Part shown: positions 1 to 61,775 of the stretch, piece after piece | How the letters are laid out: every line of letters begins with the position of its first letter | Position numbering within the stretch: the first letter of the stretch is position 1 | Assembly: GCA_043228905.1 (NCBI GenBank) | Contig: JBHGNT010000012.1 | Coordinates: 13,082,001 to 13,146,000, forward strand | Length of the DNA stretch: 64,000 bases | Reading direction: 5' to 3' | From: Azolla caroliniana | Lineage: Eukaryota; Plantae; Polypodiophyta | Translations under genes and position numbers: made by a program | Notes under the pieces: generated by a model | Database searches by the model: none | Told to the model about the DNA's origin: nothing | Seen by the model: the letters and a program-made list of their open reading frames with translations, nothing else

Positions 1-214
1 TTAGCCCCACGGTTTTGTGGACCTTTTACAGTCCTAAAACGCATTGGGTCATCAGCCTATCGTCTCGCTCTTCCCGATGGTGTCGGAATTAATCCAGTCT
101 TTCATGTGAGTCATCTAAAAGAACTTCTAGGTTCTAGCGACAACATAGTTACAATTGAAACTCTGGTTACTTCTGAAGATTTATCTTCGAAACCACATGT
201 ACCAGAAAGAATTC
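1..214 (+). mobile_element. Gypsy family A integrase C-terminal fragment
   Basis: Near-identical to 56767-56980 (LAPRFCGPF..RIGSSAYRL..PVFHVSHLK). Joins the albumin-like repeat through a shared 'attc'. Confidence 0.9.
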
Positions 215-846
215 GCCACTTTTAAAGAACGTACACAACTTTTTCAACTATACACTTTCTGAACATCGTAAATGGTGTGCTCTGTGGTGTCTTGACATTC
301 TCATAACCCTCTCAATCATATTTCTCCCATGCTCGCGCACAACACACACGCACGAACACACACACGATCAGGTCGCGTGCCCTCGCTCGCTCATTGCACA
401 AGCAAAATGAAACTCCACGCGCACGGTTTCTCACACACACATGCCCACAGGATCAGTACCCACTCCTACCCTACCTATATCTATCTCTATCCATCTATCG
501 CTATCTCTCTCACGAGCAACGCGAAACTCGTCAAATGTCGATGCCATCACAATGTTGTATTGAAGCCACCCTCATACAATGTCATGTCTCGCCATACCAT
601 GATGTGCGCAACAATAGTGCCTGATAGTAATTCCTACTACAAACATGATTCCACATGACATTCCCATGTCTATCTACCATTTTCATCATCGTGTGCACCA
701 GCCCACGCATGTTTCACCTAGAAATGTTGACCTTGAATGGTGCCACCTTCATATTACTCAAGTGTTGCAGCGTCCACAACGACGGCGGATCTTGTAATCA
801 CAATGAAAACGCATGTCGTCGTCCGTATGTTGGTCGCAATCGATTC
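211..846 (+). repeat. Fragment of the 2S-albumin-like tandem unit (last codons plus 3' spacer)
   Basis: Colinear and highly similar to 8466-9096 and 19421-20024. Confidence 0.9.
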
Positions 847-1197
847 AAATGCATCTGTTGGATAACGTGCGGGATGCATTTGAATCACCAACCGTACTTG
901 ATTCAAAAAACCTCGAAAATGCGCCCTCGACCCATCAAATTTAGCTGGGAGGCTAATTTTGGGCTCCTTGATAAGTCCCTGACCTTTAACCCTTTGTTGT
1001 TGTAACACGATGATTGTCGACTCTAACTGTTGCACTCGTCGCGTGAACTCCTCTTGTTGTTGTTGCTTCTCTATAGTAACCTTTTGTAGATCCCCAAGTA
1101 GACGTTGATTCTCTACTTCAAGAGATGCGAACTTGGATTTAAGGTTCTCCATTTCTGCATCAAGGGTGAGATATTCTTCTGAGTTAATGGCAACCAT
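843..1197 (-). pseudogene. gag: Truncated Gag of a Tf1/Tcn1-like Gypsy element
   Basis: MVAINSEE..coiled coil..EPKISLPAKFDGSRAHFRGFLNQVRLVIQMHPARYPTD, a capsid N-terminus typical of Ty3/sushi-type Gag. Confidence 0.8.
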
Positions 1198-8285: not shown

Positions 8286-8480
8286 GAGGATGCCGAGCGA
8301 GAGAGACATAGTAGCGAGCGCGAGGAGAACGAACGCCGTTATCGCATGACGGGACGACAAGATGAGGAACAACGTCGTCGTTTCAAGGCCGGTGACGAGG
8401 AACAATTTCTAAGCGTGGCAACCTCTCGCCTTCTCCAACAACGTGATCTTCGCCCACGCGCTTGTATTCGCCACTTTTAA
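8285..8480 (+). pseudogene. 3' end of a 2S-albumin-like gene copy
   Basis: EDAERERHS..EEQFLSVATSRLLQQRDLRPRACIRHF*, paralogous to 10449-10643. Confidence 0.75.
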
Positions 8481-9475
8481 AGAACGTACATAACTTTTTC
8501 AACTATACACTTTCTGAACATCGTAAATGTAAATGGTGTGCTCTGTGGTGTCTTGGCGTTCTCATAACCCTCTCAATCATATTTCTCCCACGCTCGTGCA
8601 CAACACGCACGGACGCACGATCAGGTCGCGTGCCCTCGCTCGCTCATTGCACATGCAAAATGAAACTCCACGCACACATGATTAGGTAACGTGCCCACAC
8701 GCACCTTACCCACTCCCACCCTACCTATATCTATCTCTATCCTTCTATTGCTATCTCTCTCACGAGCAACGCGAAACTCGTCAAATGTCGATGCCATCAC
8801 AATGTTGTATTGAAGCCACCCTCATACAATGTCGTGTCTCACCGTACGATGATGTGCGCAATAGTAGTGGCTGATCGTAACTCCTACTACAAACATGATT
8901 CCACATGACATTCCCATGTCTATCTCCCATTTTAATCATCGTGTGAACCAGCCCACCCATGTTTCACCTAGAAATGGTGTCCTTGAATGGTGCCACCTTC
9001 ATATTCCTCGGGTATTGTAGCGTCCACAACGACGACGGATCTTGTAATCACAATGAAAACGCGTGTCGTCGTCCGTATGTTGGTCGCAATGGATTCTAAA
9101 CTCCCTCGTGGCCACAACCACCAAAAACGTATTCGTGGAGAGAACCAACACCCTCAAAACCTTTTCTCACCACCTTATCCTCGTTTTACGAGGCCCATAC
9201 GCACTCTACAACCTCAATGGCATCACATGTGTAGGTGGCTATCATGAGGTTACATACTGTCTACGTTGCAATATGGACGAAGCGTCCATAGGTTAGTAGA
9301 TTTGAAATGCCCAAGCGGATAATCCCACTCTTGTTGTGATGGAGGTGAGTATAGGGCTAATGATATGGTAGGTCGAAGCAGGAGGATCCTGGACATGTAA
9401 AGGGGGGTGGTGAAAAGTGAATGGTCTCTTCCGCGGCCCAAGTATGGATCATGCCATTAACGTCTATAGGAATGG

Positions 9476-9526
9476 ACGTGGGAAGGGACATGCATGTACT
9501 AGACATGCATGGCCTTGTGTATATAA
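9476..9526 (+). promoter_or_regulatory. Promoter: ACGTGG (9476-9481), RY boxes CATGCATG (9489-9496, 9504-9511), TATATAA (9520-9526)
   Basis: Motifs read directly, just upstream of the signal-peptide ORF, and identical in the second copy. Confidence 0.75.
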
Positions 9527-9591
9527 GGGTGGAGCAACCATGACACACTCAAATAGGCGTAGAGAGAACCGGGGTAGTTATCATATTCCTC

Positions 9592-10643
9592 ATGGCGGTT
9601 ATCATGCTAGCCGCCTGCGGCGCGGCCAATGCTAGATCTGTAGGACGGGATCGCGAAGAGGAGAGGCGCGATCAACCAAGAGAGGGAGACATTGACGAGG
9701 AGAGACGCGATCGACGTAGGGAGGAGGATGTCGACGAGAAGAGGCGCAACGGATGTCGTGAGGGATCCATCGATGAGAGGCGCTACAGAGACAACAAGAG
9801 AGAGTCGGATGAGGACCGGGATCGTCGCAGTTGCGATCGCGATGAGCCACGTGAGGAGAGGCGCGATCGACGCAGGGAGGTGGATCTCGATGAGGAGACG
9901 CGCGGGGGACGTCGCGAGGGGTCCATCGAGGAGGGCCGCTATGGAGACAACAAGAGAGAATCCGAAGAGAGGAATGGGATCGTCGCGGTCGCGATTGTGA
10001 TGAGTCACGTGACGAGAGGCGCGATCGACGTAGGGAGGAGGATGTCGAGCAGGAGAGTCACGACCAACGTCGTGAAGGATCCCTCGATCAAGGATGTCGC
10101 AGAGACAACCGGAGAGAGTCCGAAGAGGAACAGGATCGTCGCGGCCGCGATCGCGATGAGCCACGAGACCGAGAGTTGAGGCAAGAGTGCCAAAACTTCG
10201 TTGATAGGCAGGTCCGCCACCTACAAGAACATAATGAGAAGGAAGAACGTGGAGGAATCCGTCACACCTCTTGGGATGAAATCAGTCGATATGCAAGGCC
10301 CTCCGAAAGATGCTGCAGGAACGTGGAACAAATGCCTGTAGAAGAGCGTTGCAACCGCATCCGCGAGGCCTTATACATTAGCGGAGAAGAGGCACGCAAT
10401 GATGGTCACTTCCATAGCCAAGTGTCCAGGGAACGTCGTCAATGGGAAGAGGATGCCGAGTAAGAGAGAGACAATAGCGAGCGCAAGGAGGACGAGCGCC
10501 GTTATCACATGACCGGACGACAAGATGAGCAACAACGTTGTCGTTTCAAGGCCGGTGAGGAGGAACAACTTCTAAGCGTGGCAACCTCTTGCCTTCTCCA
10601 ACAATGTGATCTTCGCCCACGCGCTTGTATTTGCCACTTTTAA
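9592..10643 (+). pseudogene. 2S-albumin/prolamin-superfamily storage protein-like pseudogene (full length, intronless)
   Basis: Hydrophobic leader, three ~52-aa R/E/D repeats, then RQECQNFV..SERCCRNVEQMPVEERCNRIREAL..LLQQCDLRPRAC. Disabled by a 2-bp insertion at ~9970 and TAA at 10461. Confidence 0.75.
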
Positions 10644-10743
10644 AGAATGAACATAACTTTTTCAACTATACACTTTCTAAACATCGTAAATGGTGTGCTC
10701 TGTGGTGTCTTGACGTTCTCATAACCCTCTCAATTATATTTCT

Positions 10744-13700
10744 TGTAAAAAGTAACGTGCGGAAGCAAGTATGAAGACCGAACAGAAGGAAGAGCTTGAG
10801 CTCACTCAGTATACGTGGGAGAGACAGAGAGAGTGAGAGAGGAAAACACAACAGGGATATTCAAAAAAATACTCAATCTCTATTCACCACACTCTATACA
10901 TATGTGTGTTCAATGAACACTTTTATACATGTCCTAGAAGGACTTACCGAGGTACTGACAGTACTTCAATGCTCATTAAGAGCTCCTACACTAACTCCCA
11001 AATATATTCCTCACGGAATATCTTTTCTAGAGGCCTCCCGGTTTACGCACCGATCCGGCCCTACCTACACACCGGTCTGCGTACCGGTTTACGCATTCGG
11101 CCTAACCGATCGGTCCCAACCGTTCCGGTCCTTGGCTTCTTCAGCTGATCCGGCCGATGTTGAGCTTGTCTCTTAACACTCCCCCTGAAGCTCAACTTGA
11201 GGCTCTTTGGGATCTTCGGGCTCACAGCTCCGGTTCCTCCTGGCTTTACGCCTCGCTCGCACTCCACGACCTATTCGACTCCGCGCGATTCGACCCTTCC
11301 AGTCAGCTTTTCTGCTCATGTGGCCCTTATCAGCTCTTCTGCTATTGCGGTGTTGACGCTTCTCCTACTGCCTTTTCTTCCGCTTGGGCCTCAGTTGATT
11401 CAACGTATCTGAATCAAACATCTGAACCGACTCGGCTACCTCCAATCGGTTTCCGCTCTCGTCCGAGTTGGATGTCTCCAATTTGTCTTCGGTCTTCTCG
11501 CCCTCGATGGCGTCATCTTCCCCATGCGTGGTTGGCTTCGGCTCTCTCCTTTGGATGCTCCCCTTCTGTCCGCTTCCGGACTTTTCCGCGGGTCCGCCCT
11601 CGGCTTCTTCAGCCGATCCGAAGTCGAACTCGACAACCGAGTCAACCGACTCGGTGTCGCGGTCTCCACTCCTTTCCTGCTACCTTGCTTGGTCGGCTTG
11701 GTCGTTCGGGACTGTTCTCCCCCTGAAGTTTGGCACGTCGAGGTGACGCAATCCGAGTGCACCTGAGAATTGCCGCAACTTGTCCAGACCAAGAGGCTTG
11801 GTGAAGATGTCAGTAGTCTGCCGATCCGTCGGAACGTACTGATGTTCGACTTCACTGGAAAGTACACGCTCACGGACGAAATGGTAGTGCACCTCAATGT
11901 GCTTGGTCCGTGCGTGAAAAACGGGGTTTTTCGCGAGCTGGATGATGCTGAGGTTGTTGCAGTAGATCGTTGTCGGATCTGACACCTCCTCTTGCAGGTC
12001 CCTAAGCAGCTGTTTCAACCATATGGCTTCGCATGTCGCGACAACCGCTTCTCGGTACTCAGCTTCTATGCTCGACAGTGCAACTGTTGGCTGCTTCTTA
12101 CTGCTCCACGCGATTGCGGCACTCCCGAGGGAGAACGCGTATCCGGACGTGGATCGGCGATCGGCAGCGTTGCCAGCCCAATCAGCATCGGTGTAGCCGA
12201 CTAAGTGCGCGGCTGCACCGGTCCGATATAGCAGTCCCCGGTCCTTAGTGCCGTTGACATACCGAAGTATGCGTTGCGCACACTAGAGGTGCTCCTTGGT
12301 AGGTCGCGCCATGAACTGACTGATCACCCCGACCGGATAACTAAGGTCGGGTCAGGTGATGGTCAAGTATATGAGACTTCCGACAATTTGTCGGAACCTC
12401 GTCGGGTTGCATACCTTTCCTGTATCAGGACGAAACTTGACGGTTCTGTCCAGAGGAGTCGAGACGGACTTACAGTCGGCCATCCCGAATTTGAAGAGCA
12501 TACTCAACACGTAATGACGTTGGCTGATCAATATGCCTTCGAGGGTACGGATCACTTCGATCCCGAGGAAGTAATGAAGGTTCCCTAGATCGTTCATGTC
12601 GAATGGCGAGGACCAAGTCATCAACATATAGTAAAATACTAACTGGTCCGAGTCGACCTTTCCGGATGAACAGGGAAGAGTCCGATTTTGACGTGACGAA
12701 GCCCATCCGACGCAGTTGTTGCGTGATCTTCGCATTCCAGGCACGTTGGGCTTGCTTCAATCCGTAAAGGGACTTCTTCAGTCCGCATACTGTTGAGGAG
12801 TTCGTTCCAGAGTGAAATCCGGCGGGCTGTACCATGTACACATGTTCCTCAAGGTCGCCTTGCAGGAATGCATTCTTTACATCCATCTGATGTAAGTGCC
12901 ACCCCTTCACCACAACTACTGTGAGCAAAACACGGACGGTCGTCATTTTCGCGACCGGCGCAAACGTCTCATCGTAGTCGATGTCGTGTTTCTGCGCGTA
13001 GCCCTTTGCCACTAGCCGAGCCTTGTACCGGTTGACCAAGCCATCAGTGTTGTACTTGACCTTGTACACCCACCTACACCCGATCGGTTTTACCCCTGTT
13101 GGTGCGTCAACTAGGTCCCAGGTCTTTTTCCCTGCCAATGCGTGCATCTCTTCCTTCATCGCGGCACGCCAATTCGCGTCTTTAGCCGCTTCTGTGTAGC
13201 TCTCTGGCTCATGCACTTCCGCTACACGGGTCATGTACGCATAATGATGCGCCATGTACTTGTTGTATCCGAACCACAAAACAGGATTCTTCTGACGGGT
13301 AGATCGGCGTAATCTCACATTAGCCGATGTCGAGGCCTTCTCGGTCGACGCGGACTTCACCTTTAAAGACCCGTCACCAGTTTTCTCGGAGTCGAACTCG
13401 CGTCAGTCTGACTCGTTCCTATCCGTGCCGAAATCTGACACCTTCTTCTTCCCTTTCTCTTTGCACATAAGCCGTCTCCTTGACTTCCTACGCGGGGAAT
13501 GCACAGCCGAGTCTCCACTACTCGCCGGCTCTTCATTGGACTGATCGTGCCGACTCAGTTGTCCAATCGGTCCACTTAAACGGAGTGAAATCGGACTCTC
13601 TTCATGGGTCTCGATTTCGGGCTCATCCGGAGGCATCTCGGCCTCGCTGACCTCATCGTCAGAACTCAGATTGGAGTCGAGGTTCGGAGTCGGGGCCTGG

Positions 13701-16210
13701 TACCAGAACGCGGACTCGTCAACCACAACATCGTGGCTAACACGCACTTGTTTGGTGCGAGGGTTATAGCACTTATAACCCTTCTCCTCGTCCGAGTAAC
13801 TGACCAAGATGCATTTCTCGGCCTTTGCGTCTAGCTTCCTCCTTTTCTCCTTCGGTACATGCACATACGCAATGCTACCGAACAACCTCAAGTGTCGCAA
13901 GTTCGGCTTCGTTCCGAAATATAGCTCGTGCGCCGACACTTTGTCTCCGATCCGGTTCTGGATGTATACCGCGGTCCTTACCGCCTCGGCCCAGTAGAAC
14001 TTGGGCAAGCTCCTCTCCTCCAGCATTGCTCGTGCCGCTTCCACAACTGACCGATTCTTCCTCTCGGCCACGTCGTTCTGCTCTGGCGTGTATCTACAAT
14101 TGAATTCGCGCCGAATTCCCATTTGTTGTAGGTAACCGTTGAATTGACCAGAAAAGTACTCTTTCCTGCCATCCGACCGCAGGCACTTGATCTTTCGTCC
14201 CGTTTCCGTTTCCACGAACCCTTTGAGGTCCCGGAAACAGTCGAAGACTTCGCTCTTCCTCTCAATGAGGTAGATCCATGTGTGTCGCGTGTGGTCGTCG
14301 ATGAATGAGATGAAATATCGGCTCCCGGCAAGACTAACGTTTTGTGCCGGCCCCCATACATCGGAGAGTATAAGGTCGAGCTTGTTCCGGCTCCGGTTTA
14401 GCTCATTGGGGAAAGGAAGTCAGTGTTGCTTCCTGGGCTAGCAGGTTTCACAAATTTGTGCCTTTCGGCCACTAAATTTGGGTAATCCGAACACTACCTG
14501 TTTCGATTGGAGGTGTTGAAGCCGCTGATAGTTGACGTGGCCTATCCGCTCATGCCACAAGTCCATGTCCGACTCGGATTTATGTCCCTTTGCGAACATT
14601 GCGGTGCCGCCGTCAGTGGAATCGAGGATGAACATCCTCCCGTCTCTGCGCCCTTGCGCAATCACACGGCCTTCTTCCTCAATGAAGCACCCGAGGTGTG
14701 TAAACCGAACCTCCATCCCTTGGTCGACGATCTGTGCGACCGAGACCAAGTTCTTCGTGATTGTTGGAACGTGTAGTACGTTCATGAGTTTCCCTTTCTG
14801 CCCGACATGGCTAAGGGGAACTTCTCCGACATTTGCGATCGGATGCGGAGTGTCGTCTCCAGTTGCGACTACTCCAGGTTGTATCGGTTTTTCAAGGTAC
14901 GAGAACCACTCCTTATGGCTTGTCATGTGGTTTGACGCGCCGGAGTCTACGTACCACACCTCGTCCGATCTCTCGGTGGTCCGTTTCATTGAGTTTGCTT
15001 CGTGTCTCGTCACGAAGGCAGACCCTTCTCCGGCTCTCCCGGAGTCTTTGGCGTAGTGCGATCGCTGCCGATTTCCCTTGTCGGTATGTCCGGAGCCGTT
15101 TCCAGAACAGGTTCTTTCAGAATCGGTGAGCTTCTTCCAACACTCACTTTCCCTGTGGCCTTTCTTGCCACAGTACCAACACTCCACTATGACCTTCCCT
15201 TGCCGGTTCTCATCGCTTCGACTCCCCCTATTTCCGGAGGGTCCGGAGTTGCTGTCGGCATCACTTCGGTGCCTTCTTCCTTGATCTCGTCGGCCGCCTC
15301 CATTGCGTGCTGACTCGCATCTTCCTCCACGTCCATGGGGCCTATCTCCCTTCGTGTACAGCATTCTGCTATCGGTGTGTGTGCTTGTAGATGCACCCGC
15401 ATGGTTCTCCTCTACCAGGAGCATTGACTGTAAGTCGAAAAAGGATGGCGTATTCTCCCGGGTACACACAGCCGTTCGGAACGCTCCGAACTTCGACGCC
15501 AAACCTCCGAGACAGATCTGGACCATCTCGCTCTCCTCAATGTTCACCTCTATGGAGGCGAGGGAGTCGCAGATATCCTTGATCTTCGAGGTATAGTCCG
15601 CCACCGACAAGTCGCGTTGTCGTAGGTTGCTCAACTCCTGTCGGAGCTGAAGCTTCCTGGCTGTGGTGCTCGCGGCAAAAATCTTCTTCAGATTTTCCCA
15701 CGCACCCTTCGGCGTCTTTGCATCCCGAACATAGCTCAATAGTTGTTCGCCCACACACGACGCGAAGCAGTATAATACCCTGCTCGCCTATTGCTCCCAC
15801 GACGGGAAGTCTCTGTGTGTTTATTCGGGTGCCGCATCATTAGCTCCTTCGACATAACTCTAGTAGCCGTGCCCAAGCAGGTACTGGTGCATCTTGCAGG
15901 ACCAAGACGCGTAGTTGGTTCTGTCGAGCTTCTCTGTTGGAAACGAGCTCGCCATGCCTCTATCCATCGTTCTTCTTGTTCTTTTTCGTCAAGTTGTGTC
16001 GCCTGCAGAGAGGTTCTCAACCCTCGCGCTCTAATACCATGTAAAAAGTAACGTGCGGAAGCAACCATGAAGACCGAACAGAAGGAAAAAAACCCAGGTT
16101 TAATGGAGAGCTTGAGCTCACGCAGTATACGCGGGAGAGACAGAGAGAGTGAGAGAGGAAAACACCAGAGGCATATTCAAAAAAATACTCAATCTCTATT
16201 CACCACACTC
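10744..16210 (-). mobile_element. Ty1/Copia element, near complete and decayed
   Basis: 3' LTR 10744-11178 (TG..CA), PPT 11179-11186, PBS-Met 16028-16039, partial 5' LTR 16040-16210. Domain order gag-PR-IN-RT-RH. Confidence 0.95.
11700..15967 (-). pseudogene. gag-pol: Copia gag-pol pseudogene
   Basis: CWYCGKKGHRESEC zinc knuckle, VDSGASNHM, SDVWGP, YVDDL, HARTKHIEVHYHFVRE; multiple stops and frameshifts. Confidence 0.95.
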
Positions 16211-16902
16211 CTGGTGTGATAGAGGTGATATGATAGGTCGAAGTAGGAGGATCCTGGACACGTATAGGGCGGTGGTGAAAAGTGAATGGTCTCTTCTGTG
16301 GCCCAAGTATGGATCATGCCATTAACGTCTATAGGAATGGACGTGGGAAGGGACATGCATGTACTAGACATGCATGGCCTTGTGTATATAAGGGTGGATC
16401 AACCATGACACACTCAAATAGGCGTAGAGAGAACCGGGGTAGTTATCATATTCCTCATGGCGGTTATCATGCTAGCCGCCTGAGGCGCGGCCAATGCTAG
16501 ATCTGTATGACGGGATCGCGAAGAGGAGAGGCGCGATCGACAAAGAGAGGGAGACATTGACGAGGAGAGACGCGATCGACGTAGGGAGGAGGATGTCGAC
16601 GAGGAGAGGCGCAGCCGACGTCGTGAGGGATCCATCAATGAGAGGCGCTACAGAGACAACAAGAGAGAGTTGGATGAGGACTGGAATCGTTGTAGTCGCG
16701 ATCGCGATGAGCCACGTGAGGAGAGGCGCGATCGACGCAGGGAGGAGGATTTCGATGAGGAGAGGCACGAGCGACGTTGCGAGGGGTCCAGCGAGGAGGG
16801 GCGCTATGGAGACAACAAGAGAGCGTCCGAAGAGGAACGGGATCGTCGTGGTCGTGATCGTGATGAGTCACGTGACGAGAGGCGCGATCGGCGTAGGGAG
16901 GA
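16211..16902 (+). pseudogene. Promoter and 5' half of a second 2S-albumin-like copy
   Basis: RY boxes 16354-16361 and 16369-16376, TATA 16385, ATG 16457, early TGA stops at 16481 and 16508; cut by a family A LTR at 16903. Confidence 0.8.
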
Positions 16903-19356: not shown

Positions 19357-20024
19357 ACAACTTCTAAGCGTGACAACCTCTCGCCTTCTCCAACAATGTG
19401 ATCTTCGCGCACGCGCTTGTATTCGCCACTTTTAAAGAATGTATATAACTTTTTCAACTATACACTTTCTAAACATCGTAAATGTAAATGGTGTGCTCTG
19501 TGGTGTCTTGACGTTCTCATAACCCTCTCAATGATATTTCTCCCACGCTCGCGCACAACACGCACGCACGCACGCACGATCAGGTCGCGTGCCCTCGCTC
19601 GCTCATTGCACAAGCAAAATGAAACTCCACGCACACATGATTAGGTAACGTGCCCACACGCACACTACCCACTCCCACCCTACCTATATCTATCTCTTTC
19701 CATCTATCGCTATCTCTCTCACGAGCAACGTGAAACTCGTCAAACGTCGATGCCATCACAATGTTGTATTGAAGCCACCCTCATACAATGCCGTGTCTCG
19801 CCGTACCATGATGTGCGCAATAGTAGTGGTTGATCGTAACTCCTACTACAAACATGATTCCACATGACATTCCCATGTCTATCTACCATTTTCATGATCG
19901 TGTGAACCAGCCCACGCATGTTTCACCTAGAAATGTTGTTCTTGAATGGTGCCACCTTCATATTCCTCGGGTGTTGCAACGTCCACAACGACGACGGATC
20001 TTGTAATCACAATGAAAACGCGTG
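19357..20024 (+). pseudogene. 3' end and spacer of another albumin-like copy
   Basis: QLLSVTTSRLLQQCDLRARACIRHF* followed by the spacer; interrupted by a Copia LTR at 20025. Confidence 0.8.
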
Positions 20025-20362
20025 TGTTGAGCGGCAAGCTCAACCGGAGCCGGATCGGCTGAATAAGTCGGAGCCGGTAAGCGAGACGGATCGGGCGAAA
20101 CAGATCGGTATGACGGCGAGCAACCGAACTGGCAAGCAGTGGAGGCCAGGTGCAATCCGTAACCGGAAGTCCAATCGGAAGCCTAGTATAGGATAGACTA
20201 CTAGGTAGCTATAGTCTCGTAGTAAGTGTCAGATGCCTGTGTGAGCATTGAAGTACATGGTACTTCTGTCAGTCCCAAGAGGACTTGTATAAATAGTGCT
20301 ACTTAGCACAGTGTATAGATAGAGAGTCTTGATATAATTTTGAGTGTGTTCTGCTCTCTCTG

Positions 20363-26066: not shown

Positions 26067-29000
26067 TGTTACGGGCATGACCATATAATATCCCGTGGTA
26101 AGAATTTACCGTAGTATTCTATACACGTGGATAAGTGTGAGGGTTAAATGAGAGTGTAAAGAAGGGGAGGATTACTTTTAATCCTCGGGATTGAGACAAC
26201 CCATTAGGTCAAGTGTGAACTTGCCTGGGGGCCTTGGGTATCGCTATAAATAAGAGGCCTAGCTACCCTCATTTGATGATCTTTTGACTACATCGAGACT
26301 CTGCTTGTGTGGTGGGTCAACTCTTGTAGCGAGCGCGCCAGCACCAGGTACGACTCGACGCCACGGCGGTGGTATGGGACGCCGATCGAGGCTCGAGTCC
26401 GTCTCGATCCCTTCGCTCGGGGGTGGTCGGGTGGATCGGCACCCTTCTTTCTCTTTCTCCTTTCTATCTTTCATTTCTTTATCCTTATCTTAAGCTTTCT
26501 TTAGTACCTAGATCTATAATATTTGGTATCAGATTTTTGTACTAATGTTTCTTTGTTTTTCATTTGTCTTTTGATTGATGCTGATCGATCGTTGTGCGGT
26601 TGGCCTTGATCCAGACAACGATCAACAAAGAACTTCGGTAACTCTTTCCAGAATTTTTCTTTCTATTCTCTCTTCTCCCATCTAATCATGTGTTTAGTTT
26701 ATATGTAATTTTTTTCCTTAAGTCAATGATGTTGTAGTGGTCTTTAATTGATTATCTAAAACGTTTACATATGTGCATGACGTCAATACCTCGTTTGACA
26801 TATTAATAATATGTGATGAGTGTCGTATGCGTACGAGGTTAATACCTCAATTACGTATTACGTTCACGAACATATGTTACGTTTGCGTATGAGTTTAATA
26901 CCTTGACTTGTTGTAAACGATATGCGTTTGGTCTCGTATGCGTAAGAGGTCAATACCTCCATTGCGTATTACGATGATCTCTTATTTGTGGATGTTTCGT
27001 GTGCATAGAGGTATATACCTCGATTACGTATCTCGATCACATCATTTGTGGCTATTTACTATAACGATATGTTTAATATAGGCATATGTGGTCACATATA
27101 TACGTATTTGATCGTATATATGTGATAAGTAAACATATGTGTATATTCGTTATTACGTGATTATATCGAAAGTTGTCATGGTCGGGAAAACGATGTTGGT
27201 GGCCGTCCTCACATTTTTGTGAGAATGGCGTTGTCACCATCCCTTTTTCAACATTTTTTTTATTGTTGATAACCTCGTTGACGACCTCGATTTCGTTACG
27301 TAAAGAAACGCCAATAGCCAAAATGATGTTGAGTACGTAGGGCTTGACCCACTTCAAGTGAGGTCGCTCCAATGACGCACGTATCCAACATCCCTCCCTC
27401 GTTACATGGATACGATGCCACCATGAGCTCGTTCTTACGAGAGGCATTCGTAATGACGTGACCATGTGATGGCCCACGTGAGCCTACTACGAAACAAGGG
27501 CTCATTTGGCTTGAACATTAGGTTGCACTTTGGCGTATGCCATCGTAATTACGAGACTTGAGGTTAGGTAACGTACCAACATAGTTTTGGTAAATGAGGG
27601 CGAAATAAGGACCCTTGACATATATGTTCTTTTAAAAAAACATATATAATCAATTGCCTCGCATATCTCTTATACGCATCAAACATTAAGCATTCGAGAA
27701 GAGCAATTTACTTGGTTGGGTCAAGTGTTTAATGTATTTGTTCTCGAGGTCTCGAGTTCAAATATGACAAAGACCATACAACATCCTTGATACATATGAC
27801 TATAACACATGTTTAGACTTAAGGTCTAAGTGCACCTCGGGGTCCTCGTAATAGGACTTAAAGAGCCGAAACCACATATGTGGGCACCGAAACATAGTTT
27901 ATTATTAACATTTTTTTCGTGTATAAACTATTCATGACGCGAACATACATGGTTGAGCCTCGGGGAGCCACCATGAAAAAATCGATATAGAGATCAGGGA
28001 AAGACATTTATTTGTCACCCCCATGGTTTTTAAAACACCTTTGTGTTACCATAGTAACCTGATCTTGAATCTCATCTCATACGTCTAGAGGGGTATTGAC
28101 GTGAGATAATGATATCGATTAATGCTCGCCCATGATATGTTTACATCACGACATGATGTTATGAGTATATCTCTTACCTTGTCCTATTTCTTTTCCAGAA
28201 ATAATCTTTAATGGCTCAAATTAACGACCCCATGTCATCCGCTCAAGCGGAAGGAACTCAAGGGAATCCTCCTGGACAAATGTCCACTGAGATGTATTTG
28301 GCACAAATAACCCAATACCTTAGTTTCACCGCTCAACAGATGACCGAACTTCGGCAATCTCAGAGTGCTCTTGAGGCATGTGTCATTAGTCTACAACGTG
28401 AGACTAATAGACCTGATGAGCGACAAGGTGAACCATCATTTGTCGTTAAGCCATTTACGAGAGACAAAAAGGAAAGAACCGAAGAAGCAATCTGCACATG
28501 GCTGGGACGATGGGAGTCTCATTTTGAGCTCTATCCCACGCTAGATAGTACGAAGATTGCATATGTCGGCCGAGAACTCGGGGGTAAGGCCGCCGCCTAG
28601 TGGCGTGGGCTCCGTACAATGGGGAAATTGCCCGATACCTGGACAGATTTTGTCACGGTTTTTAAGGGCCAATTTCTGCCATCTCCCTCTCGAACCGAGG
28701 CCGCACAAGCTTTAATGAACCTGTCTAGCAGGAAATTTTCCTCGCTAGAAGACTATGTTCACCATGCTAGAACCCAAATCCAAAAATCGGGTCTAGAAGG
28801 GGACAATTGATTGATAGCTTTGTTTGTCAATGGCATCCCCAATTTGGACTATCACTGGATAGTGCACGATAAGGATTCAAAATCCTTCGAAGAGGCCGTT
28901 GAAATAGTTCTTCGCTATCAACGCACTTCGAAGAAGGACCATAACAAACTCAACGAAGTGCCCGGGACTAAGCAGTCGCAATTTGTTGGGAAACGCAAGA

Positions 29001-29233
29001 CACCCAACGAATTCCTGGATCGCGATTGTAAGCGACAACATCCTTTTTGTGTATTCTGCAAAAAGAAGGGTCATACAAAAGATCAATGTCGAAAGCTCCA
29101 ACGGAAAGAGCACGACAACAAAGCTAATGTTGCAGACCATAAAGGTCAGATTCCTAATGTCCTTCACGTCTATACACATCATTTAAGTAATTGTCAATGT
29201 TCTTTCCCTCACTATGTATTGGGTCCCAATGAT
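26067..29233 (+). mobile_element. Gypsy family A 5' part: LTR 26067-26521, PBS-Met 26524-26533, ~1.7-kb leader, gag from 28211
   Basis: LTR matches other copies; gag [24 protein letters not shown] with stops. Confidence 0.95.
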
Positions 29234-32204
29234 TGTCAATCCTCTTTTTGACCTCGGGTAAATCTCGAACACAAACCTTGCCATTACGGTAGAGAAAACC
29301 GTTAGCAATGTGGAAGTATTCCTTCGAGGACGTGCTGGTGTCTGTTCCAGACTCAACTCTTGCCCAGTATTTTGCAAAATAACTGTCATCAGGATACTTT
29401 CCTCGAAGGTGATCATAAAGATCTGATGTTATTTCAGTGAAGATAAGCATGTTAACTTCACGGATGTGACGTAGTGCATCAGCGACAGTGTTCATGGAAC
29501 CTTTACGATATCGTATGGAAAAATCAAAGTCCTGGATGAGATCAGCCCATCGTGCCTTACGAACTTTCAGTAAACGGCGTCGTCAATGGGGAGTAATTAC
29601 GAAGAGACTTTCCCAAAAACCCCTCAAAACCAAGGAATGATCGAACTTCTCAAATATTCCGAAGAGTGGGCCAATGCTTGATTTTCTCAATGCGAGAAGG
29701 ATCAATTTCACCTACTCGTTCGGTTATGAGATGTCCAAGATAAGTAATTGATTTCTTGAAGAACTCACATTTTGAGATCTTCGCATAAAACTGTTTGTCA
29801 CGCAATGTTTGTAAAACAAAGCGGACATGTCTAGCATGTTCTTGTAATGTACGGCTATAAACTAAAATATCATCCAAGAAAATAACAACAAATTTTCCAT
29901 CAGGTAGTTCACTTGGAAAAACATCATGAAAATCATTTAAGATTTCATCAAGTTGTTGTTGTTCAAAATATGTTAATTGAACCGGGACATTATTGATATT
30001 GTAAACGTGAATGTCCGGATCAAGTATACACTAAAATAACGTAGAACAAGACAACTCGGATATTGATGGACACGAGGTAACAATCGAGAGGGATTGTGTT
30101 TTTACACATTGAATAAAATGCGTACAATTGTTCAGTACAAAAGAAATGGAATGGCGAACCCAAACAATAAATAAAGAAGAGTTTTTATTATAAAACCAGG
30201 GATAACCCAGTATTACATCGGTGGTACAAAGATTCATTACATGGAAGTCTACTTCCTCTATATAAGTATCAATAGAAATTCCTAATGAATGAATCACCCT
30301 GTTGATGTATTGTACTCTTCCATCAGCCAAGTGGACCGTGTAGGTGTGATCACTTACAGTGGGCTGAATTCCCCATATCTAAACCAAACGATCATTCACA
30401 AAATTGTGTGAGCTTCCCGAATCAAATAAAAATTGTACGGGAGATCCATTGATATACCCGTTTGCACGTAGTAAATCATTGGGACCCAATACATAGTGAG
30501 GGAAACAACATTGACAATAACTTAAATGATGTGTATAGACCTGAAGGACATTAGGAATCTGACCTTTATGGTCTACAGCTTTAGCTTTGTTGTCGTGCTC
30601 TTTCCGTTGGAGCTTTCGACATTGATCTTTTGTATGACCCTTCTTTTTGCAAAATACGCAAAAAGGATGTTGTCGCTTACAATCGCGATCCAGGAATTCG
30701 TTGGGTGTCTTGCGTTTCCCAACAAATTGCGACTGCTTAGTCCGGGGCGCTTCGTTGGGTTTGTTGTGGTCCTTCTTCGAAGTGCGTTTATAGCGAAGAA
30801 CTATTTCAATGGCCTCTTCGAAGGATTTTGGATCCTTATCGTGCACTATCCAGTGATAGTCCGAATTGGGGATGCCATTGACAAAACAAGCTATCAACCA
30901 ATTGTCCCTTTCTAGACCCGATTTTTGGATTTGGGTTCTAGCATGGTGAACATAGTCTTCTAGAGAGGAAAATTTCCTTCTAGAGAGGTTCATTAAAGCT
31001 TGTGCTGCCTCGGTTCCAGAGGGAGGTTGCAGAAATTGGCCCTTAAAAACCGTGACAAAATCTGTCCAGGTACGGAGCCCATGCCACCAGGCGGCGGCCT
31101 TACCCCCGAGTTCCCGGCCGACATATGCAATCTTCGTACTATCTGGCGTGGGATAGAACTCAAAATGAGACTCCCATCGTCCCACTCATGTGCAGATTGC
31201 TTCTTCGGTTCTTTCCTTTTTGTCTCCCGTAAATGGCTTAACGACAAATGATGGTTCACCTTGTCGCTCATCAGGTCTATTAGTCTCACGTTATAGACAA
31301 ATGACACGTGCCTCAAGAGCACTCTGAGATTGCCGAAGTTCGGTCATCTGTTGAACGGTGAAACTAAGGTATTGGGTTATTTGTGCCAAATACATCTTAG
31401 TGGACATTTGTCCAGGAGGTTTCCCTTGAGTTCCTTCCGCTTGAGCGGATGACATCGGGTCGTTAATTTGAGCCATTAAACATCGGGTCGTTAATTTGAG
31501 CCATCGGGTCGTTAATTTGAGCCATTAATTTGAGCCAACCAAGTAAGTTGCTCTTCTTGAATGCTTAATGTTTGATGCGTATAAGTGATATGGGAGGCAA
31601 TTGATCATATATGTTTTTTTTAAAAGAACATATATGTCAAAGGTCCTTATTTCGCCCTCATTTACCAAAACTATGTTGGTACGTTACCTAACCTCAAGTC
31701 TCGTAACTATGTTGGTACGTTACCAAAACTATGTTGGTGCAACCTAATGGTCAAGCCAAATGAGCCCTCGTTTCGTAGTAGGCTCACGCGGGCCATCACA
31801 TGGTCACGTCATTACGAATGCCTCTCATAAGAACGAGCTCATGGTGGCATCGTATCCATGTAATGAGGGAGGGATGTTGGATACGTGCGTCATTGGAGCG
31901 ACCTCACTTGAAGTGGGTCAAGCCCTACGTACTCAACATCATTATGGCTATTGGCGTTTCTTTACGTAACGAAATCGAGGTCATCAACGGGGTTGTCAAC
32001 AATAAAAAACTGTTGAAAAAGGGATGGTGACAACGCCATTCTCACAAAAATGTGAGGACGGCCACCAAAATCCTTTTCCCGACAAGGACAACTTTCGATA
32101 TAATCACGTAATAACGAATATACACATATGTTTACTTATCACATATATACGATCAAATACGTATAAATGTGACCACATATGCCTATATTAAACAAATCGT
32201 TATA
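29234..32204 (-). mobile_element. Gypsy family A internally deleted copy (leader, gag, PR, RT/RH pieces)
   Basis: ORFs 31291-31476, 30379-31185, 29650-29877 (DDILVYS), 29154-29495. Confidence 0.92.
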
Positions 32205-32289
32205 TCCCATGTCTATCGCTATCTCTCCTTTCTATCTTTCATTTCTTTATCCTTATCTTAAGCTTACTTTAGTACCTAGATCTATAATA

Positions 32290-32463
32290 GCATGACCGGA
32301 CGACAAGATGAGGAACAACGTCATCGTTTCAAGGCCGGTGAGGAGCAACAACTTCTAAGCGTGGCAACCTCTCGCCTTCTCCAACAATGTGATCTTCGCC
32401 CACGCGCTTGTATTTGCCACTTTTAAAGAACGTATATAACTTTTTCAACTATACACTTTCTGA
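32290..32463 (+). pseudogene. 3' end of another albumin-like copy
   Basis: MTGRQDEEQRHRFKAGEEQQLLSVATSRLLQQCDLRPRACICHF*, preceded by a family A LTR end. Confidence 0.8.
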
Positions 32464-32563
32464 NNNNNNNNNNNNNNNNNNNNNNNNNNNNNNNNNNNNN
32501 NNNNNNNNNNNNNNNNNNNNNNNNNNNNNNNNNNNNNNNNNNNNNNNNNNNNNNNNNNNNNNN
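32464..32563. other. Assembly gap (100 N)
   Basis: Run of n. Confidence 1.
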
Positions 32564-35500
32564 ACGTATATGATCAATTGCCTCGCATATCTCTTATACG
32601 CATCAAACATTAAGCATTCGAGAAGAGCAACTTACTTGGTTGGCTCAAGTGTTTAATGTATTTGTTCTCGAGGTCTCGAGTTCAAATATGACCAAGACCA
32701 TACAACATCCTTGATACATATGACTATAACACATGTTTAGACTTAAGGTCTAAGTGCGCCTCGGGGTCCTCGTAATAGGACTTAAAGAGCCGAAACCACA
32801 TATGTGGGCACCGAAACATAGTTTATTATTAACATTTTTTTCGTGTATAAACTATTCATGACGCGAACATACATGGTTGAGCCTCGGGGAGCCACCATGA
32901 AAAAATCGATATAGAGATCAGGGAAAGACATTTATTTATCACCGCCATGGTTTCTAAAACACCTTTGTGTTCCCATAGTAACCTGATCTTGAACCTCATC
33001 TCATACGTCTAGAGGGGTATTGACGTGAGATAATGATATCGATTAATGCTCGCCCATGATATGTTTACATCACGACATGATGTTATGACTATATCTCTGA
33101 CCTTATCCTATTTCTTTTCTAGAAATAATCTTTCTTGGCTTACATTAACGACCCGATGTCATCCGCTCAAGCGGAAGGAACTCAAGGGAGTCCTCTTGGA
33201 CAAATGTCCACTAAGATGTATTTGGCACAAATAAGCCAATACCTTAGTTTCACCGCTCAACAGATGACCAAACTTCGGCAATCTCAGAGTGCTCTCTAGG
33301 CACGTGTCATTAGTCTACAACGTGAGACTAATAGACCTGATGAGCGACAAGGTGAACCATCATTTGTCGTTAAGCCATTTACGGGAGACAAAAAGGAAAG
33401 AACCGAAGAAGCAATCTGCACATGGCTGGGACGATGGGAGTCTCATTTTGAGCTCTATCCCACGCCAGATAGTACGAAGATTGCATATGTCGGCCGAGAA
33501 CTCGGGGGTAAGGCCGCCGCTTGGTGGCGTGGCCTCCGTACTATGGGGAAATTGCCCGATACCTGGACAGATTTTGTCACGGTTTTTAAGGGCCAATTTC
33601 TGCAACCTCCCTCTCGGACCGAGGCAGCACAAGCTTTAATGAACCTCTCTAGCAGGAAATTTTCCTCGCTAGAAGAGTATGTTCACCATGCTAGAACCCA
33701 AATCCAGAAATCGGGTCTAGAAGGGGACAATTGGTTGATAGCTTGTTTTGTCAATGGCATCCCCAATTCGGACTATCACTGGATAGTGCACGATAAGGAT
33801 CCAAAATCCTTCGAAGAGGCCGTTGAAATAGTTCTTCGCTATCAACGCACTTCGAGGAAGGACCATAACAAACCCAACGAAGCGCCCGGGACTAAGCAGT
33901 CGCAATTTGTTGGGAAACGCAAGACACCCAACGAATTCCTGGATCGCGATTGTAAGCGACAACATCCTTTTTGTGTATTCTGCAAAAAGAAGGGTCATAC
34001 AAAAGATCAATGTCGAAAGCTCCAACGGAAAGAGCACGACAACAAAGCTAAAGCTGCAGACCATAAAGGTCAGATTCCTAATGTCCTTCAGGTCTATACA
34101 CATCATTTAAGTAATTGTCAATCTTCTTTCCCTCACTATGTATTGGGTCCCAATGATTTATTACGTGCAAACGGGTATATCAATGGATCTCCCGTACAAT
34201 TTTTATTTGATTCGGGAAGCTCACACAATTTTGTGAATGATCGTTTGGTTCAGATATGGGGAATCCAACCCACCGTAAGTGATCACACCTACACGGTGCA
34301 CTTGGTTGATGGAAGAGTACAATACGTCAACGGGGCGATTCATTCATTAGGAATTTCTATTGATACTTATATAGAGGAAGTAGACTTCCATGTAATGAAT
34401 CTTTGTACCACCGATGTAATACTGGGTTATCCCTGGTTTTATAATAAAAACTCTTCTTTATTTATTGATTGGGTTCGTCATTCCATTTCTTTTGTACTGA
34501 ACGATTGTACGCATTTTATTCAATGTGTAAAAAAACAATCGCTCTCGATTGTTTCCTCGTGTCCATCAATATCCGAGTTGTCTTGTTCTACGTTATTTTA
34601 TTGTGTACTTGATCCGGACATTCACGTTTACAATATCGATAACGTCTCGATTCAATTAACATATTTTGAACAACAACAACTTCATGAAATCTTAAATGAT
34701 TTTCATGATGTTTTTCCAAGTGAACTACCTGATGGGTTACCTCCTAAACGTAATATAGACCATCGTATAGATATTGTTCCTGGTGTTGCACCAATAAGTA
34801 TACCTCCGTATCGCTTAAGTCGATCCGAAGAAGATGAGGTATCTAAGCAACTCAAGGACTATTTACGAATGGGTTATATACGTTATAGTAAATCTCCATG
34901 GGGTACACCAGTTCTCTTGGTTAAAAAGAAAGAGGGCACATGGCGTATGTGTATTAATTACCGACGCTTGAATAAAGTGACGATCAAGAATTCGTATCCA
35001 TTGCCCCGGGCTGACGATCTAATTGACCGTCTCCAAGGAGCTCGGTATTTTACGAAACTTCATCTCCGTACTGGCTACCATCAAATACAAATAAGTGAGG
35101 ACGATGTTCCTAAAACGGCATTTCGTACGCGTTATGGCGATTACGAGTTTTTGGTTATGCCTTTTGGTTTGACCAATGCTCCGGCTACTTTTCAACAAGA
35201 AATGAATGACATTTTCCGAGAACAACTTGGAAAATTTGTCGTTATTTTCTTGGATGATATTTTAGTTTATAGCCGTACATTACAAGAACATGCTAGACAT
35301 GTCCGCTTTCTTTTACAAACATTGCGTGACAAACAGTTTTATGCGAAGATCTCAAAATGTGAGTTCTTCAAGAAATCAATTACTTATCTAGGACATCTCA
35401 TAACCGAACGAGGAGTTGAAATTGATCCTTCTCGAATTGAGAAAATCAAGCTTTGGCCCACTCTTCGGAATATTCGAGAAGTTTGATCATTCCTTGGTTT

Positions 35501-36283
35501 TGTGCGGTTTTTGCGAAAGTCTCTTCGTAATTACTCCTAATTGACGACGCCGTTTACTGATCTTTTAAAATGTCAAACGCGTAAGTCTACAAAACCTATT
35601 GTGTGGAATGCCACACTAGACCTTGCCTTTAAGGAACTCAAGGACTTGGTTTGCAAGACTCCTTCACTTCTTTTACCCGATCCTTCAAAACCTTTTGAGG
35701 TTGAAACCGGTGCAAGCGATTATGCTATAGGTGTTGTCTTGTATCAAGATGGTAAACCAATAGCATTCGAGAGTAAGAAACTTGATTCTGCTCAATGTCG
35801 GTATACCGTTGAAGAAAAGGAATTATTTGCAGTTATACATGCGCTCAAAACATGGCGCCATTATCTTTATGGAAATCACTTTGTAGTAACTACGGACCAC
35901 GAGTCCTTCAAATATTTTTGTGACCAACAAGACCTAAAAGGTCGTAAGGCACGATGGGCTGATCTCATCCAGGACTTTGATTTTTCCATACGATATCGTA
36001 AAGGTTCCATGAACAGTGTCACTGATGCACTAAGTCGCATCCGTGAAGTTAACATGCTTAGCTTCACTGCAATATCATTAGATCTTTATGATCACCTTCG
36101 AGGAAAGTATCCTGATGACAGTTATTTCGCAAAATACTGGGCAAGAGTTGAGTCTGGAACAAACACCACCACATCCTCGAAGGAATACTTCCACATTGCT
36201 AACGGTTTGCTCTACCGTAATGGGAAGGTTTGTGTTCCAGATTTACCCGAGGTCAAAAAGAGGATTCTTTTTGAATGCCATGA
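32564..36283 (+). mobile_element. Gypsy family A leader-gag-PR-RT-RH fragment
   Basis: ORF 33543-35486 ([32 protein letters not shown]) and ORF 35541-36314. Confidence 0.95.
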
Positions 36284-39200
36284 CGAACCCAATCAACACG
36301 AACCCAATCAATAAATAAAGAAGAGTTTTTATTATAAAACCAGGGATAACCCAGTATTACATCGGTGGTACAAAGATTCATTACATGGAAGTCTACTTCC
36401 TCTATATAAGTATCAATAGAAATTCCTAATGAATGAATCGCCCCGTTGATGTATTGTACTCTTCCATCGGCCAAGTGCACCGTGTAGGTGTGATCACTTA
36501 CGGTGGGTTGGATTCCCCATATCTGAACCAAACGATCATTCACAAAATTGTGTGAGCATCCCGAATCAAATAAAAATTGTACGGGAGATCCATTGATATA
36601 CCCGTTTGCACGTAGTAAATCATTGGGACCCAATACATAGTGAGGGAAAGAACATTCACAATTACTTAAATGGTGTGTATAGACCTGAAGGACATTAGGA
36701 ATCTGACCTTTATGGTCTGCAACTTTAGCTTTGTTGTCGTGCTCTTTCCGTTGGAGCTTTCGACATTGATCTTTTGTATGCCCCTTCTTTTTGTAGAATA
36801 CACAAAAAGGATGTTGTTGCTTACAATCGCGATCCAGGAATTCGTTGGGTGTCTTGCGTTTCCCAACAAATTGCGACTGCTTAGTACCGGGCGCTTCGTT
36901 GGGTTTGTTATGGTCCTTCTTCGAAGTGCGTTGATAGCGAAGAACTATTTCAACGGCCTCTTCGAAGGATTTTGGATCCTTATCGTGCACTATCCAGTGA
37001 TAGTCCGAATTGGGGATGCCATTGACAAAACAAGCTATCAACCAATTGTCCCCTTCTAGACCCGATTTTTGGATTTGGGTTCTAGCATGGTGAACATACT
37101 CTTCTAGCGAGGAAAATTTCCTGCTAGAGAGGTTCATTAAAGCTTGTGCTGCCTCGGTTCGAGAGGGAGGTTGCAGAAATTGGCTCTTAAAAACCGTGAC
37201 AAAATCTGTCCAGGTATCGGGCAATTTCCCCATAGTACGGAGGCCAGGCCATCAGGCGGCGGCCTTACCCCCGAGTTCTCGACCGACATATGCAATCTTC
37301 GTACTATCTGGCGTGGGATAGAGCTCAAAATGAGACTCCCATCGTCCCAGCCATGTGCAGATTGCTTCTTCGGTTCTTTCCTTTTTGTCTCCCATAAATG
37401 GCTTAACGACAAATGATGGTTCACCTTGTCGCTCATCAGGTCTATTAGTCTCACGTTGTAGACTAATGACACGTGCCTCAAGAGCACTCTGAGATTGCCG
37501 AAGTTCGGTCATCTGTTGAGCGGTGAAACTAAGGTATTGGGTTATTTGTGCCAAATACATCTCAGTGGACATTTGTCCAGGAGGATTCCCTTGAGTTCCT
37601 TCCGCTTGAGCGGATGACATCGGGTCGTTAATTTGAGCCATTAAAGATTATTTCTAGAAAAGAAATAGGATAAGGTCAGAGATATAGTCATAACATCATG
37701 TCGTGATGTAAACATATCATGGGCGAGCATTAATCGATATCATTATCTCACGTCAATACCCCTCTAGACGTATGAGATGAGGTTCAAGATCAGGTTACTA
37801 TGGTAACACAAAGGTGTTTTAAAAACCATGGGGGTGACAAATAAATGTCTTTCCCTGATCTCTATATCGATTTTTTCATGGTGGCTCCACGAGGCTCAAC
37901 CATGTATGTTCGCGTCATGAATAGTTTATACACGAAAAAAATGTTAATAATAAACTATGTTTCGGTGCCCACATATGTGGTTTCGGCTCTTTAAGTCCTA
38001 TTACGAGGACCCCGAGGCGCACTTAGACCTTAAGTCTAAACATGTGTTATAGTCATATGTATCAAGGATGTTGTATGGTCTTGGTCATATTTGAACTCGA
38101 GACCTCGAGAACAAATACATTAAACACTTGAGCCAACCAAGTAAGTTGCTCTTCTCGAATGCTTAATGTTTGATGCGTATAAGAGATATGCGAGGCAATT
38201 GATCATATACGTTTTTTTAAAAGAACATATATGTCAAGGGTCCTTATTTCGCCCTCATTTACCAAAACTATGTTGGTACGTTACCTAACCTCAAGTCTCG
38301 TAATTACGATGGCATACGCCAAAGTGCAACCTAATGGTCAAGCCAAATGAGCCCTCGTTTCGTAGTACGCTCACGTGGGCCATCACATGGTCACATCATT
38401 ACGAATGCCTCTCGTAAGAACGAGCTCATGGTGGCATCGTATCCATGTAACGAGGGAGGGATGTTGGATACGTGCGTCATTGGAGCGACCTTACTTGAAG
38501 TGGGTCAAGCCCTACGTACTCAACATCATTTTGGCTATTGGCGCTTCTATACGTAACGAAATCGAGGTCCTCAACGGGGTTATCAACAATAAAAAAATGT
38601 TGAAAAAGGGATGGTGACAACGCCATTCTCACAAAAATGTGAGGACGGCCACCAACATCCTTTTCCCGACCATGACAATTTTCGATATAATCACGTAATA
38701 ACGAATATACACATATGTTTACTTATCACATATATACGATCAAATACGTATATATGTGACCACATATGCCTATATTAAACATATCGTTATAGTAAATAGC
38801 AACAAATGATGTGATCGAGATACGTAATCGAGGTATATACCTCTACGCACACGAAACATCCACAAATAAGAGATCATCGTAATACGCAATGGAGGTATTG
38901 ACCTCTTACGCATACGAGACCAAACGCATATCGTTTACAACAAATTAAGGTATTAAACTCATACGCAAACGTAACATATGTTCGTGAATGTAATACGTAA
39001 TTGAGGTATTAACCTCGTACGCATACGACACTCATCACATATTATTAATATGTCAAACGAGGTATTGACCTCGTGCACATATGTAAACGTTTTAGATAAT
39101 CAATTAAAGACCACTACAACATCATTGACTTAATGAAAAAAAATTACGTATAAACTAAACACATGATTAGATGGGAGAAGAGAGAATAGAAAGAAAAATT

Positions 39201-39785
39201 ATGGAAAGAGTTACCGAAGTTCTTTGTTGATCGTTGTCTGGATCAAGGCCAACCGCACAACGATCGATCAGCATCAATCAAAAGACAAATGAAAAACATA
39301 GAAACATTAGTACAAAAATCTGATACCAAATATTATAGATCTAGGTACTAAAGTAAGCTTAAGATAAGGATAAAGAAATGAAAGATAGAAAGGAGAAAGA
39401 GAAAGAAGGGTGCCGATCCACCCGACCACCCCCGAGCGAAGGGATCGAGACGGACTCGAGCCTCGATCGGCGTCCCATACCACCGTCGTGGCGTCGAGTC
39501 GTACCTGGTGCTGGCGCACTCGCTACAAGAGTTGACCCACCACACGAGCAGAGTCTCGATGTAGTACCAAGATGATCAAATGAGGGTAGCTAGGCCTCTT
39601 ATTTATAGCGATACCCAAGGCCCCCAGGCAAGTTCACACTTGACCTAATGGGTTGTCTCAATCCCGAGGATTCAAAGTAATCCTCCCCTTCTTTACACTC
39701 TCGTTTAACCCTCACACTTATCCACGTGTATAGAATAGTACGGTAAATTCTTACCACAGGATATTATATGGTCATGCCCGTAACA
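36284..39785 (-). mobile_element. Gypsy family A 5' part, inverted: LTR 39331-39785, PBS-Met, leader, gag-PR
   Basis: ORFs 37252-37641 and 36253-37233; tctgatacca at 39319-39328. Confidence 0.95.
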
Positions 39786-61520: not shown

Positions 61521-61775
61521 AAGTAACGAAATTGAAGTCATTAACAGGGATGTCAACAATAAAAATTTGTTGAAAATGGGATGGTGACAACACCATTGTT
61601 ACAAAAATGTTAGGACGGCCACCAAGATCCTTTCCCCGAAAAAGGAAAACATTCGATATTGAAATCACGTAATAACTTATATACACATATGTATATTATC
61701 ACATATATACGATCAGATACGTATACACGTGACCACATATGCATATATAAAAGAAATCGTAATATAAAATAGCCA

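Follow-up and report, generated by a model that had tools for sequence, protein, structure and literature searches.

The window, meaning the whole stretch of 64,000 nucleotides that was analysed, contains at 9592–10643 a decayed gene copy (copy A) with a deleted start codon, a 2-bp insertion and a premature TAA. The insertion (9966..9967, forward strand), which shifts the reading frame, was recognized by comparison with a second copy in the window (copy B) and with the intact relative L001, and the TAA (10461..10463, +) stands at an Arg codon of the relatives and of contigs from sequencing runs, so both lesions postulated in the original prediction exist. The gene does not begin at 9592, as had been assumed. 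Alignment with relatives and run contigs locates a deletion of ~28 bp at 9578..9579 (+), common to copies A and B, which removed the initiator ATG and the first nine codons; this piece is present in all seven relatives with a promoter, whose start lies nine codons upstream of the ATG at 9592, and in contigs from two sequencing runs aligned to the window it appears as a loose end at 9579. What is left of the copy comprises the remnant of a predicted signal peptide from the internal Met10 (9592..9633, +; alignment and hydropathy of intact relatives), an Arg/Glu/Asp pro-region (9634..10172, +; alignment and repeat analysis) in which a 156-bp (52-aa) unit occurs three times, at 9700–10175, and a prolamin-superfamily domain (10173..10643, +; Pfam and PDB matches and alignment). 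The 195-aa open reading frame from 9592 and an overlapping second frame were set aside, since both arise from the frameshift and the repeat.

The conserved Cys codons of copy A are located at 10188, 10311, 10314, 10350, 10605 and 10626. Eleven residues separate the second Cys of the CC pair from the next Cys, just as predicted, and an Arg/Glu loop of about 84 residues lies between the fourth and the fifth. The predicted number of six holds for the conserved cysteines, but the domain of copy A actually has nine Cys codons, and the extra ones (10539, 10590 and 10632) are Arg codons in all six intact domains and in the four runs compared. CpG transitions make up 20 of the 44 coding substitutions in copy A (1 of 44 in the reverse direction), and this CpG decay explains the three extra Cys codons, which had rightly been ignored, as well as the TAA. 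Between copy A and L001 the domain differs by 4 silent and 16 replacement changes (dN/dS 1.02).

The array and its remains

The original prediction had missed the tandem arrangement: the gene belongs to a head-to-tail array, with a stop-to-stop period of 2163 bp in the window. Positions 742–2171 of L001 match 8286–9676 of the window in a single continuous alignment (94%) running from a gene end through the spacer to the next gene start. The 3′ end of the preceding gene copy (8286..8480, +), cut upstream by a Gypsy element, is identified by this match and by 80% protein identity to the C-terminus of copy A, and 8481..9470 (+), also within the continuous L001 match, is the 3′ UTR of the unit together with the spacer to the next gene. 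After copy A, a Copia LTR retrotransposon (10744..16225, −; LTRs near 10744–10894 and 16040–16210) takes the place of the spacer. Copy B (16226..16902, +) retains the promoter and the 5′ half of the gene with two early stops and is cut at 16903 by a Gypsy LTR; it is 94% identical to copy A and free of the 2-bp insertion. Besides copies A and B, the window contains four 3′-end fragments of the gene, at 211, 8286, 19357 and 32287. In sequence comparison, 211..849 (+) proved to be the last codons of another copy followed by its 3′ UTR and spacer, 19357..20025 (+) the 3′ end of another copy with its spacer, and 32287..32463 (+) a fragment of a further 3′ end, flanked by the end of a Gypsy LTR on one side and by an assembly gap (100 N, 32464–32563) on the other. 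Because the start-codon deletion is common to copy A (9578–9579) and copy B (near 16443), a dead unit must itself have been duplicated within the array before the transposons broke it up.

The window consists almost wholly of nested Gypsy and Copia elements, and the array here has been shredded by transposons. The array pieces at 211–849, 8286, 10744, 16903, 19357, 20026 and 32287 adjoin LTR elements, with the other half of the unit absent beyond, and such split units at LTR borders suggest deletion or recombination after insertion, or else assembly joins. One Gypsy family has several copies of 94–98% identity in both orientations in 26067–39785 and 51200–64000, and a 3.2-kb inverted Gypsy pair is formed by 26067–29234 and 36618–39785. 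Two tandem arrays (105 bp, 4.9 copies, at 39947–40465; about 46 bp, 16 copies, at 41883–42952) probably sit inside untranslated regions of retroelements. The closest relatives of a Copia protein of the window, up to 83%, are on short metagenome contigs (120 of 134 matches listed); the nearest named relative among the matches listed is the fern Adiantum nelumboides (37–50%), and seed plants reach 29–36%. These relationships suggest that the host is a seed-free land plant.

Promoter

Upstream of the deletion site lie an ACGT-core box (9476..9481, +), two RY boxes, CATGCATG at 9489..9496 (+) and CATGCATG at 9504..9511 (+), and a TATA box (9520..9526, +). Like the lost start codon, this RY promoter had been missed in the original prediction. 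In the alignment of nine promoters, the 5-letter core of the first RY box, the TGCATG of the second and the TATA core were found in all nine, and the ACGT-core box is kept in one subfamily of the relatives (subfamily I) and not in the other (subfamily II). Ten RY hexamers occur in 330 nt of six proximal promoters, a region chosen after alignment, compared with three in the other 12,015 nt. The spacers are about 70% identical within a subfamily and do not align between subfamilies, and the RY and TATA boxes are nonetheless in place. Judged by its boxes, the promoter bears the RY-plus-TATA signature of seed-storage genes. LEA genes, among others active in maturation, are under RY-box control as well.

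Intact relatives and selection

A metagenome scan identified eight related loci (L001–L008) out of 175 candidate stretches. L003 and L004 are complete open frames of 374 aa and L007 is a complete frame of 295 aa, while in L001, L002 and L005 the frame is open across the domain. Intact copies, whose absence from every relative was to count against the original prediction, therefore exist. These frames are continuous in genomic contigs, which shows that the genes are intronless. Five of the eight loci are self-closing, with terminal overlaps of 37–77 nt and units of 1.7–2.2 kb (an 11-nt overlap between the ends of L001, caused by a repeat, was left out as an artefact), and in L005 the end, spacer and start of successive units are seen directly. 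The stated contig coverage of the metagenome loci is 56–657 and the depth of a 1987-nt contig from the DNA run X1 is 588, figures that point to many copies but have no single-copy reference behind them. In L008 (144–1317) the gene end and a short spacer piece are followed by AT-rich unrelated DNA, possibly an array end or a dispersed copy.

The relatives split into the two subfamilies, about 63–71% identical, and two assemblies contain both. Among the six intact domains, dN/dS is 0.12–0.21 in 14 of the 15 pairs, the 15th being without amino-acid change; the values are 0.04–0.15 for 62 core codons and 0.16–0.25 for the loops, and dS is near 1 between subfamilies. The intact relatives are under purifying selection.

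Contigs with relatives at about 90% identity were also obtained from runs X17, X18 and X19 (guessed to be RNA; two studies and two other organisms), and those of X17 and X19 have the start codon and lack the stop. The depth of X18 reaches about 150,000, and X18 and X19 give no cover outside 9555–10676; contig depth is no measure of expression, and these limits of cover were not read as transcript ends. None of the 24 sequencing runs listed is on record as RNA. We take the contigs of these three runs to show that intact relatives exist and nothing beyond.

In protein collections the family is present only as fragments of 45–46 aa. Word-indexed searches with the decayed domain (E 0.01) recovered none of 152 candidates of 278–2000 aa and none of 11 candidates of 86–277 aa, and an exact look-up found none of ten family sequences, the intact L004 and L007 included. 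HMMER against 1.84 billion representative proteins gave two matches, of which P0003 is a true 45-aa fragment and P0004, an unrelated repeat protein, was dropped. The family is thus nearly absent from these collections and is probably a blind spot of annotation.

Cysteine scaffold and superfamily membership

All six contiguous intact domains, from both subfamilies, have exactly six cysteines in the pattern C..CC-x11-C..C-x6-C (spacing of 40, 0, 11, 84–124 and 6 residues), and the same pattern is found in L006, whose domain is in two pieces; conservation of the Cys positions among relatives is thereby established. PF00234, the family named in the original prediction, is the only Pfam family matched. 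It was hit by eight of the ten alignment members (best E 4.4e-05), the intact L005 domain scoring 23.3 bits against a cut-off of 21.7, with the decayed copy A below the cut-off (17.2 bits, E 0.006). By the Pfam matches, the family is placed in the prolamin superfamily, and none of the three outcomes named as refuting the original prediction occurred.

Three sequence searches of the PDB returned weak matches to prolamin-superfamily proteins (4 of 4, 5 of 5 and 4 of 5 matches), among them RATI (1b1u), limit dextrinase inhibitor (4cvw) and the 2S albumin 1psy, aligned ungapped from CC to CxC. These matches are individually insignificant (E 0.09–3.2) and cover the CC block only, and the best are amylase/trypsin inhibitors, not storage albumins; the sole PDB match of the decayed copy was an unrelated protein. 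Alignment to 1psy, 1b1u and 4cvw shows the register of 11 residues from CC to C6 and the C-x-x-L after C6. In the ungapped alignments a Glu or Asp occupies the first Cys of CxC, which means that C5 is missing. An alternative register, with the Cys after CC as C5 and C6 lost, was rejected, as it needs a gap absent from the alignments.

The cysteines of 2S albumins pair as C1-C5, C2-C3, C4-C7 and C6-C8, and C-x-x-F-I is a context motif of C2. No Cys was found at the C1 position, and the pro-regions of all three complete frames are Cys-free; a single Cys of L005, about 43 residues upstream of the domain, is not conserved. Context and parsimony favour C2 over C1 for the first Cys: it stands in C-x-x-F-I, and this reading leaves three complete pairs. 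The claim that C1 and C5 are both absent is thus borne out by alignment for C5, and for C1 it agrees with the empty position but depends on this numbering. The eight-Cys motif C-C-CC-CxC-C-C of 2S albumins is not present, so the family is not classed as a member of the 2S albumins, although the reading as a six-Cys 2S-albumin-like protein is supported at the level of sequence.

[quoted passage not shown] Assignment to this group was ruled out by the length of 295–374 aa, the near-neutral charge, the six cysteines and the Arg at x of CxC. PMC9832785 gives a size of 6–10 kDa for these small proteins and a C1-C5, C2-C3, C4-C7, C6-C8 pairing for type II nsLTPs, and for napin the inter-chain bridges Cys10-Cys62 and Cys23-Cys51 appear in a model in PMC8674280. 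Structure prediction was uninformative about the disulfide-held bundle of four to five helices that characterizes the prolamin superfamily: AlphaFold2 yielded two poor models, with pTM 0.23 and 0.30, of which the latter makes one long helix of the loop and C-terminal block, Foldseek with a poor model gave no matches, and a two-piece fold with the N-terminal and C-terminal blocks scored 0.25 against a mark of 0.34.

Composition and function

The mature proteins contain 31% Arg, 20–23% Glu, 11–14% Asp and about 1% Lys. Nitrogen accounts for 22.3% of their mass, compared with 17.1–18.8% in three retroelement proteins of the window, and the residues of L004 are near neutral in sum (111 basic and 116 acidic). 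This agrees with the very high Arg content of the original prediction. In L004 and L007, a hydropathy peak of 3.0 over residues 7–17 marks a predicted signal peptide, with the hydrophilic pro-region downstream. The pro-region varies from 75 to 194 aa among relatives, and its repeats contain a recurring Asn-containing motif, a candidate cut site of vacuolar processing enzyme. Arg has been gained along two separate routes: subfamily I enlarges its pro-region with 52-aa repeats, and subfamily II enlarges the loop that separates Cys four from Cys five with short ERR-type repeats (L006 1–318, L007 about 800–940).

The family is probably a 2S-albumin-like nitrogen store of maturing spores. ABI3/LEC2-type B3 factors would bind the RY boxes when spores mature and activate many copies together, and the signal peptide would direct the precursor into the ER and then to storage vacuoles. 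A reduced albumin core may be formed by the three short conserved blocks, with C2-C3, C4-C7 and C6-C8 as its disulfides; the C1-C5 bridge would have gone together with the first helix. This core would be a compact handle for two long, charge-balanced Arg/Glu/Asp tracts carrying the bulk of the nitrogen, and the tracts would be cut and degraded at germination. The array, the selection, the Cys pattern, the composition and the promoter boxes are observed; for the regulation, fold, sorting, processing and tissue we infer the above. In a more specific form, the protein would be a spore albumin of the moss lineage, with a prolamin core minus one disulfide and a helix and a ribosome-made, cyanophycin-like Arg/Glu/Asp polymer, encoded in rDNA-like 2-kb arrays under RY control; this version we consider tentative, with the chances rather against it.

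A maturation-specific protective protein seems unlikely, though it is the strongest competitor of the storage reading; as spores dry, its tracts would work in the manner of a hydrophilin or LEA protein, or its core would inhibit enzymes or fungi. RY boxes suit any maturation gene, the best PDB matches are RATI and limit dextrinase inhibitor, and even the loops are under purifying selection (dN/dS 0.16–0.25); besides, PMC4366206 mentions antifungal 2S albumins, and storage-like proteins of fern spores are tied to desiccation in PMC12598765. However, 31% Arg with about 1% Lys looks like a choice for nitrogen beyond charge alone, the near-neutral net charge is unlike that of cationic antimicrobials, tract length is free to vary (pro-region 75–194 aa), and amplification in an array fits a bulk product.

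Still less probable is a polyprotein precursor that releases the 52-aa repeats as bioactive peptides and uses the albumin core as a carrier. Sunflower albumin precursors carry buried peptides, and the three copies of the 156-bp unit and the Asn-containing motif, as a candidate processing site, would accord with this idea; yet the repeats have neither Cys nor a hydrophobic core, and their number and borders differ between relatives. The high copy number, the broken state of every copy in the window and the nested LTR surroundings could finally suggest a satellite or transposon-borne repeat with a functionless open frame and Cys pattern, but we give this hardly any credence, as it is largely refuted by dN/dS of 0.12–0.21 at dS near 1, the Cys and promoter boxes are kept while spacers diverge, and no transposon gene occurs within the array unit of the metagenome loci.

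The gene, promoter and protein of this family make two questions testable: whether seeds took their maturation programme (RY boxes, ABI3/LEC2) from spores, and whether a 2S albumin core stands without the C1-C5 bridge. Were the host a moss, 2S-type storage would be older or more widespread than the fern-plus-seed-plant range in the literature, LAFL-type regulation would exist outside vascular plants, and the family would have escaped notice because annotation treats the array as a repeat and masks it. A protein that is soluble, charge-neutral and 22% nitrogen has practical interest too.

Comparison with known systems

Our literature search, weak in subscription journals, found no six-Cys or moss 2S albumin, no clean C1-C5 loss, no polyampholyte load with 31% Arg and no such array. 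The 2S albumins (napin, Ric c 3, mabinlin, Mo-CBP3; PF00234) resemble the family in many respects. According to PMC4366206 and PMC2770497, they share with it a signal peptide and hydrophilic pro-region, the CC-x11-C register, an organization in three conserved blocks plus linker and hypervariable loop, and an RY/ACGT/TATA promoter; like it, they usually have intronless tandem genes, as the former source states. 2S albumins are processed in storage vacuoles to a small and a large chain, or to one chain, of about 12–15 kDa. In contrast, 2S albumins have eight cysteines and the family has six, and the loss of C1 and C5 would remove one of the two disulfides that join the small chain to the large (PMC8674280). 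The precursor has 295–374 aa here and about 155–163 aa in 2S albumins, and the pro-region 75–194 aa compared with 15 aa in mabinlin II; the loop of 84–124 aa and the array units of only about 2 kb are likewise unlike 2S albumins. Arg amounts to 31% here and to 12–13% in Mo-CBP3, which PMC4366206 already terms Arg-rich.

Among cereal proteins, the alpha-amylase/trypsin inhibitors (RATI 1b1u, limit dextrinase inhibitor 4cvw) give the best ungapped match over the block from CC to CxC (E 0.09–0.8), but they differ from the family in being compact, at about 120 aa, in having the complete CxC and in lacking Arg/Glu tracts. A long stretch of repeats inserted between blocks B and C, and Cys loss, both have a precedent in HMW glutenins and 13-kDa rice prolamins among the cereal prolamins (PMC4973428); their repeats are rich in Pro and Gln and their cysteines are freed for inter-chain polymers, whereas here the repeats are charged and the six cysteines are even in number and would be paired.

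Matteuccin, which is arginine-rich and consists of two disulfide-linked chains, is likewise a 2S-type protein of a seed-free plant. Rodin and Rask reportedly described it in 1990 as the 2.2S spore storage protein of ostrich fern. It was not matched in the protein searches with the decayed domain (86–2000 aa) or by HMMER over the 1.84 billion representatives. If the host is a fern, the family may be the gene family behind matteuccin. Cyanophycin is a non-ribosomal Arg-Asp polymer of cyanobacteria. Its computed nitrogen content is 25.8%, compared with 23% in the pro-region, and both balance the charge of Arg with acidic residues in what would be a nitrogen store, a likeness by analogy and not by homology.
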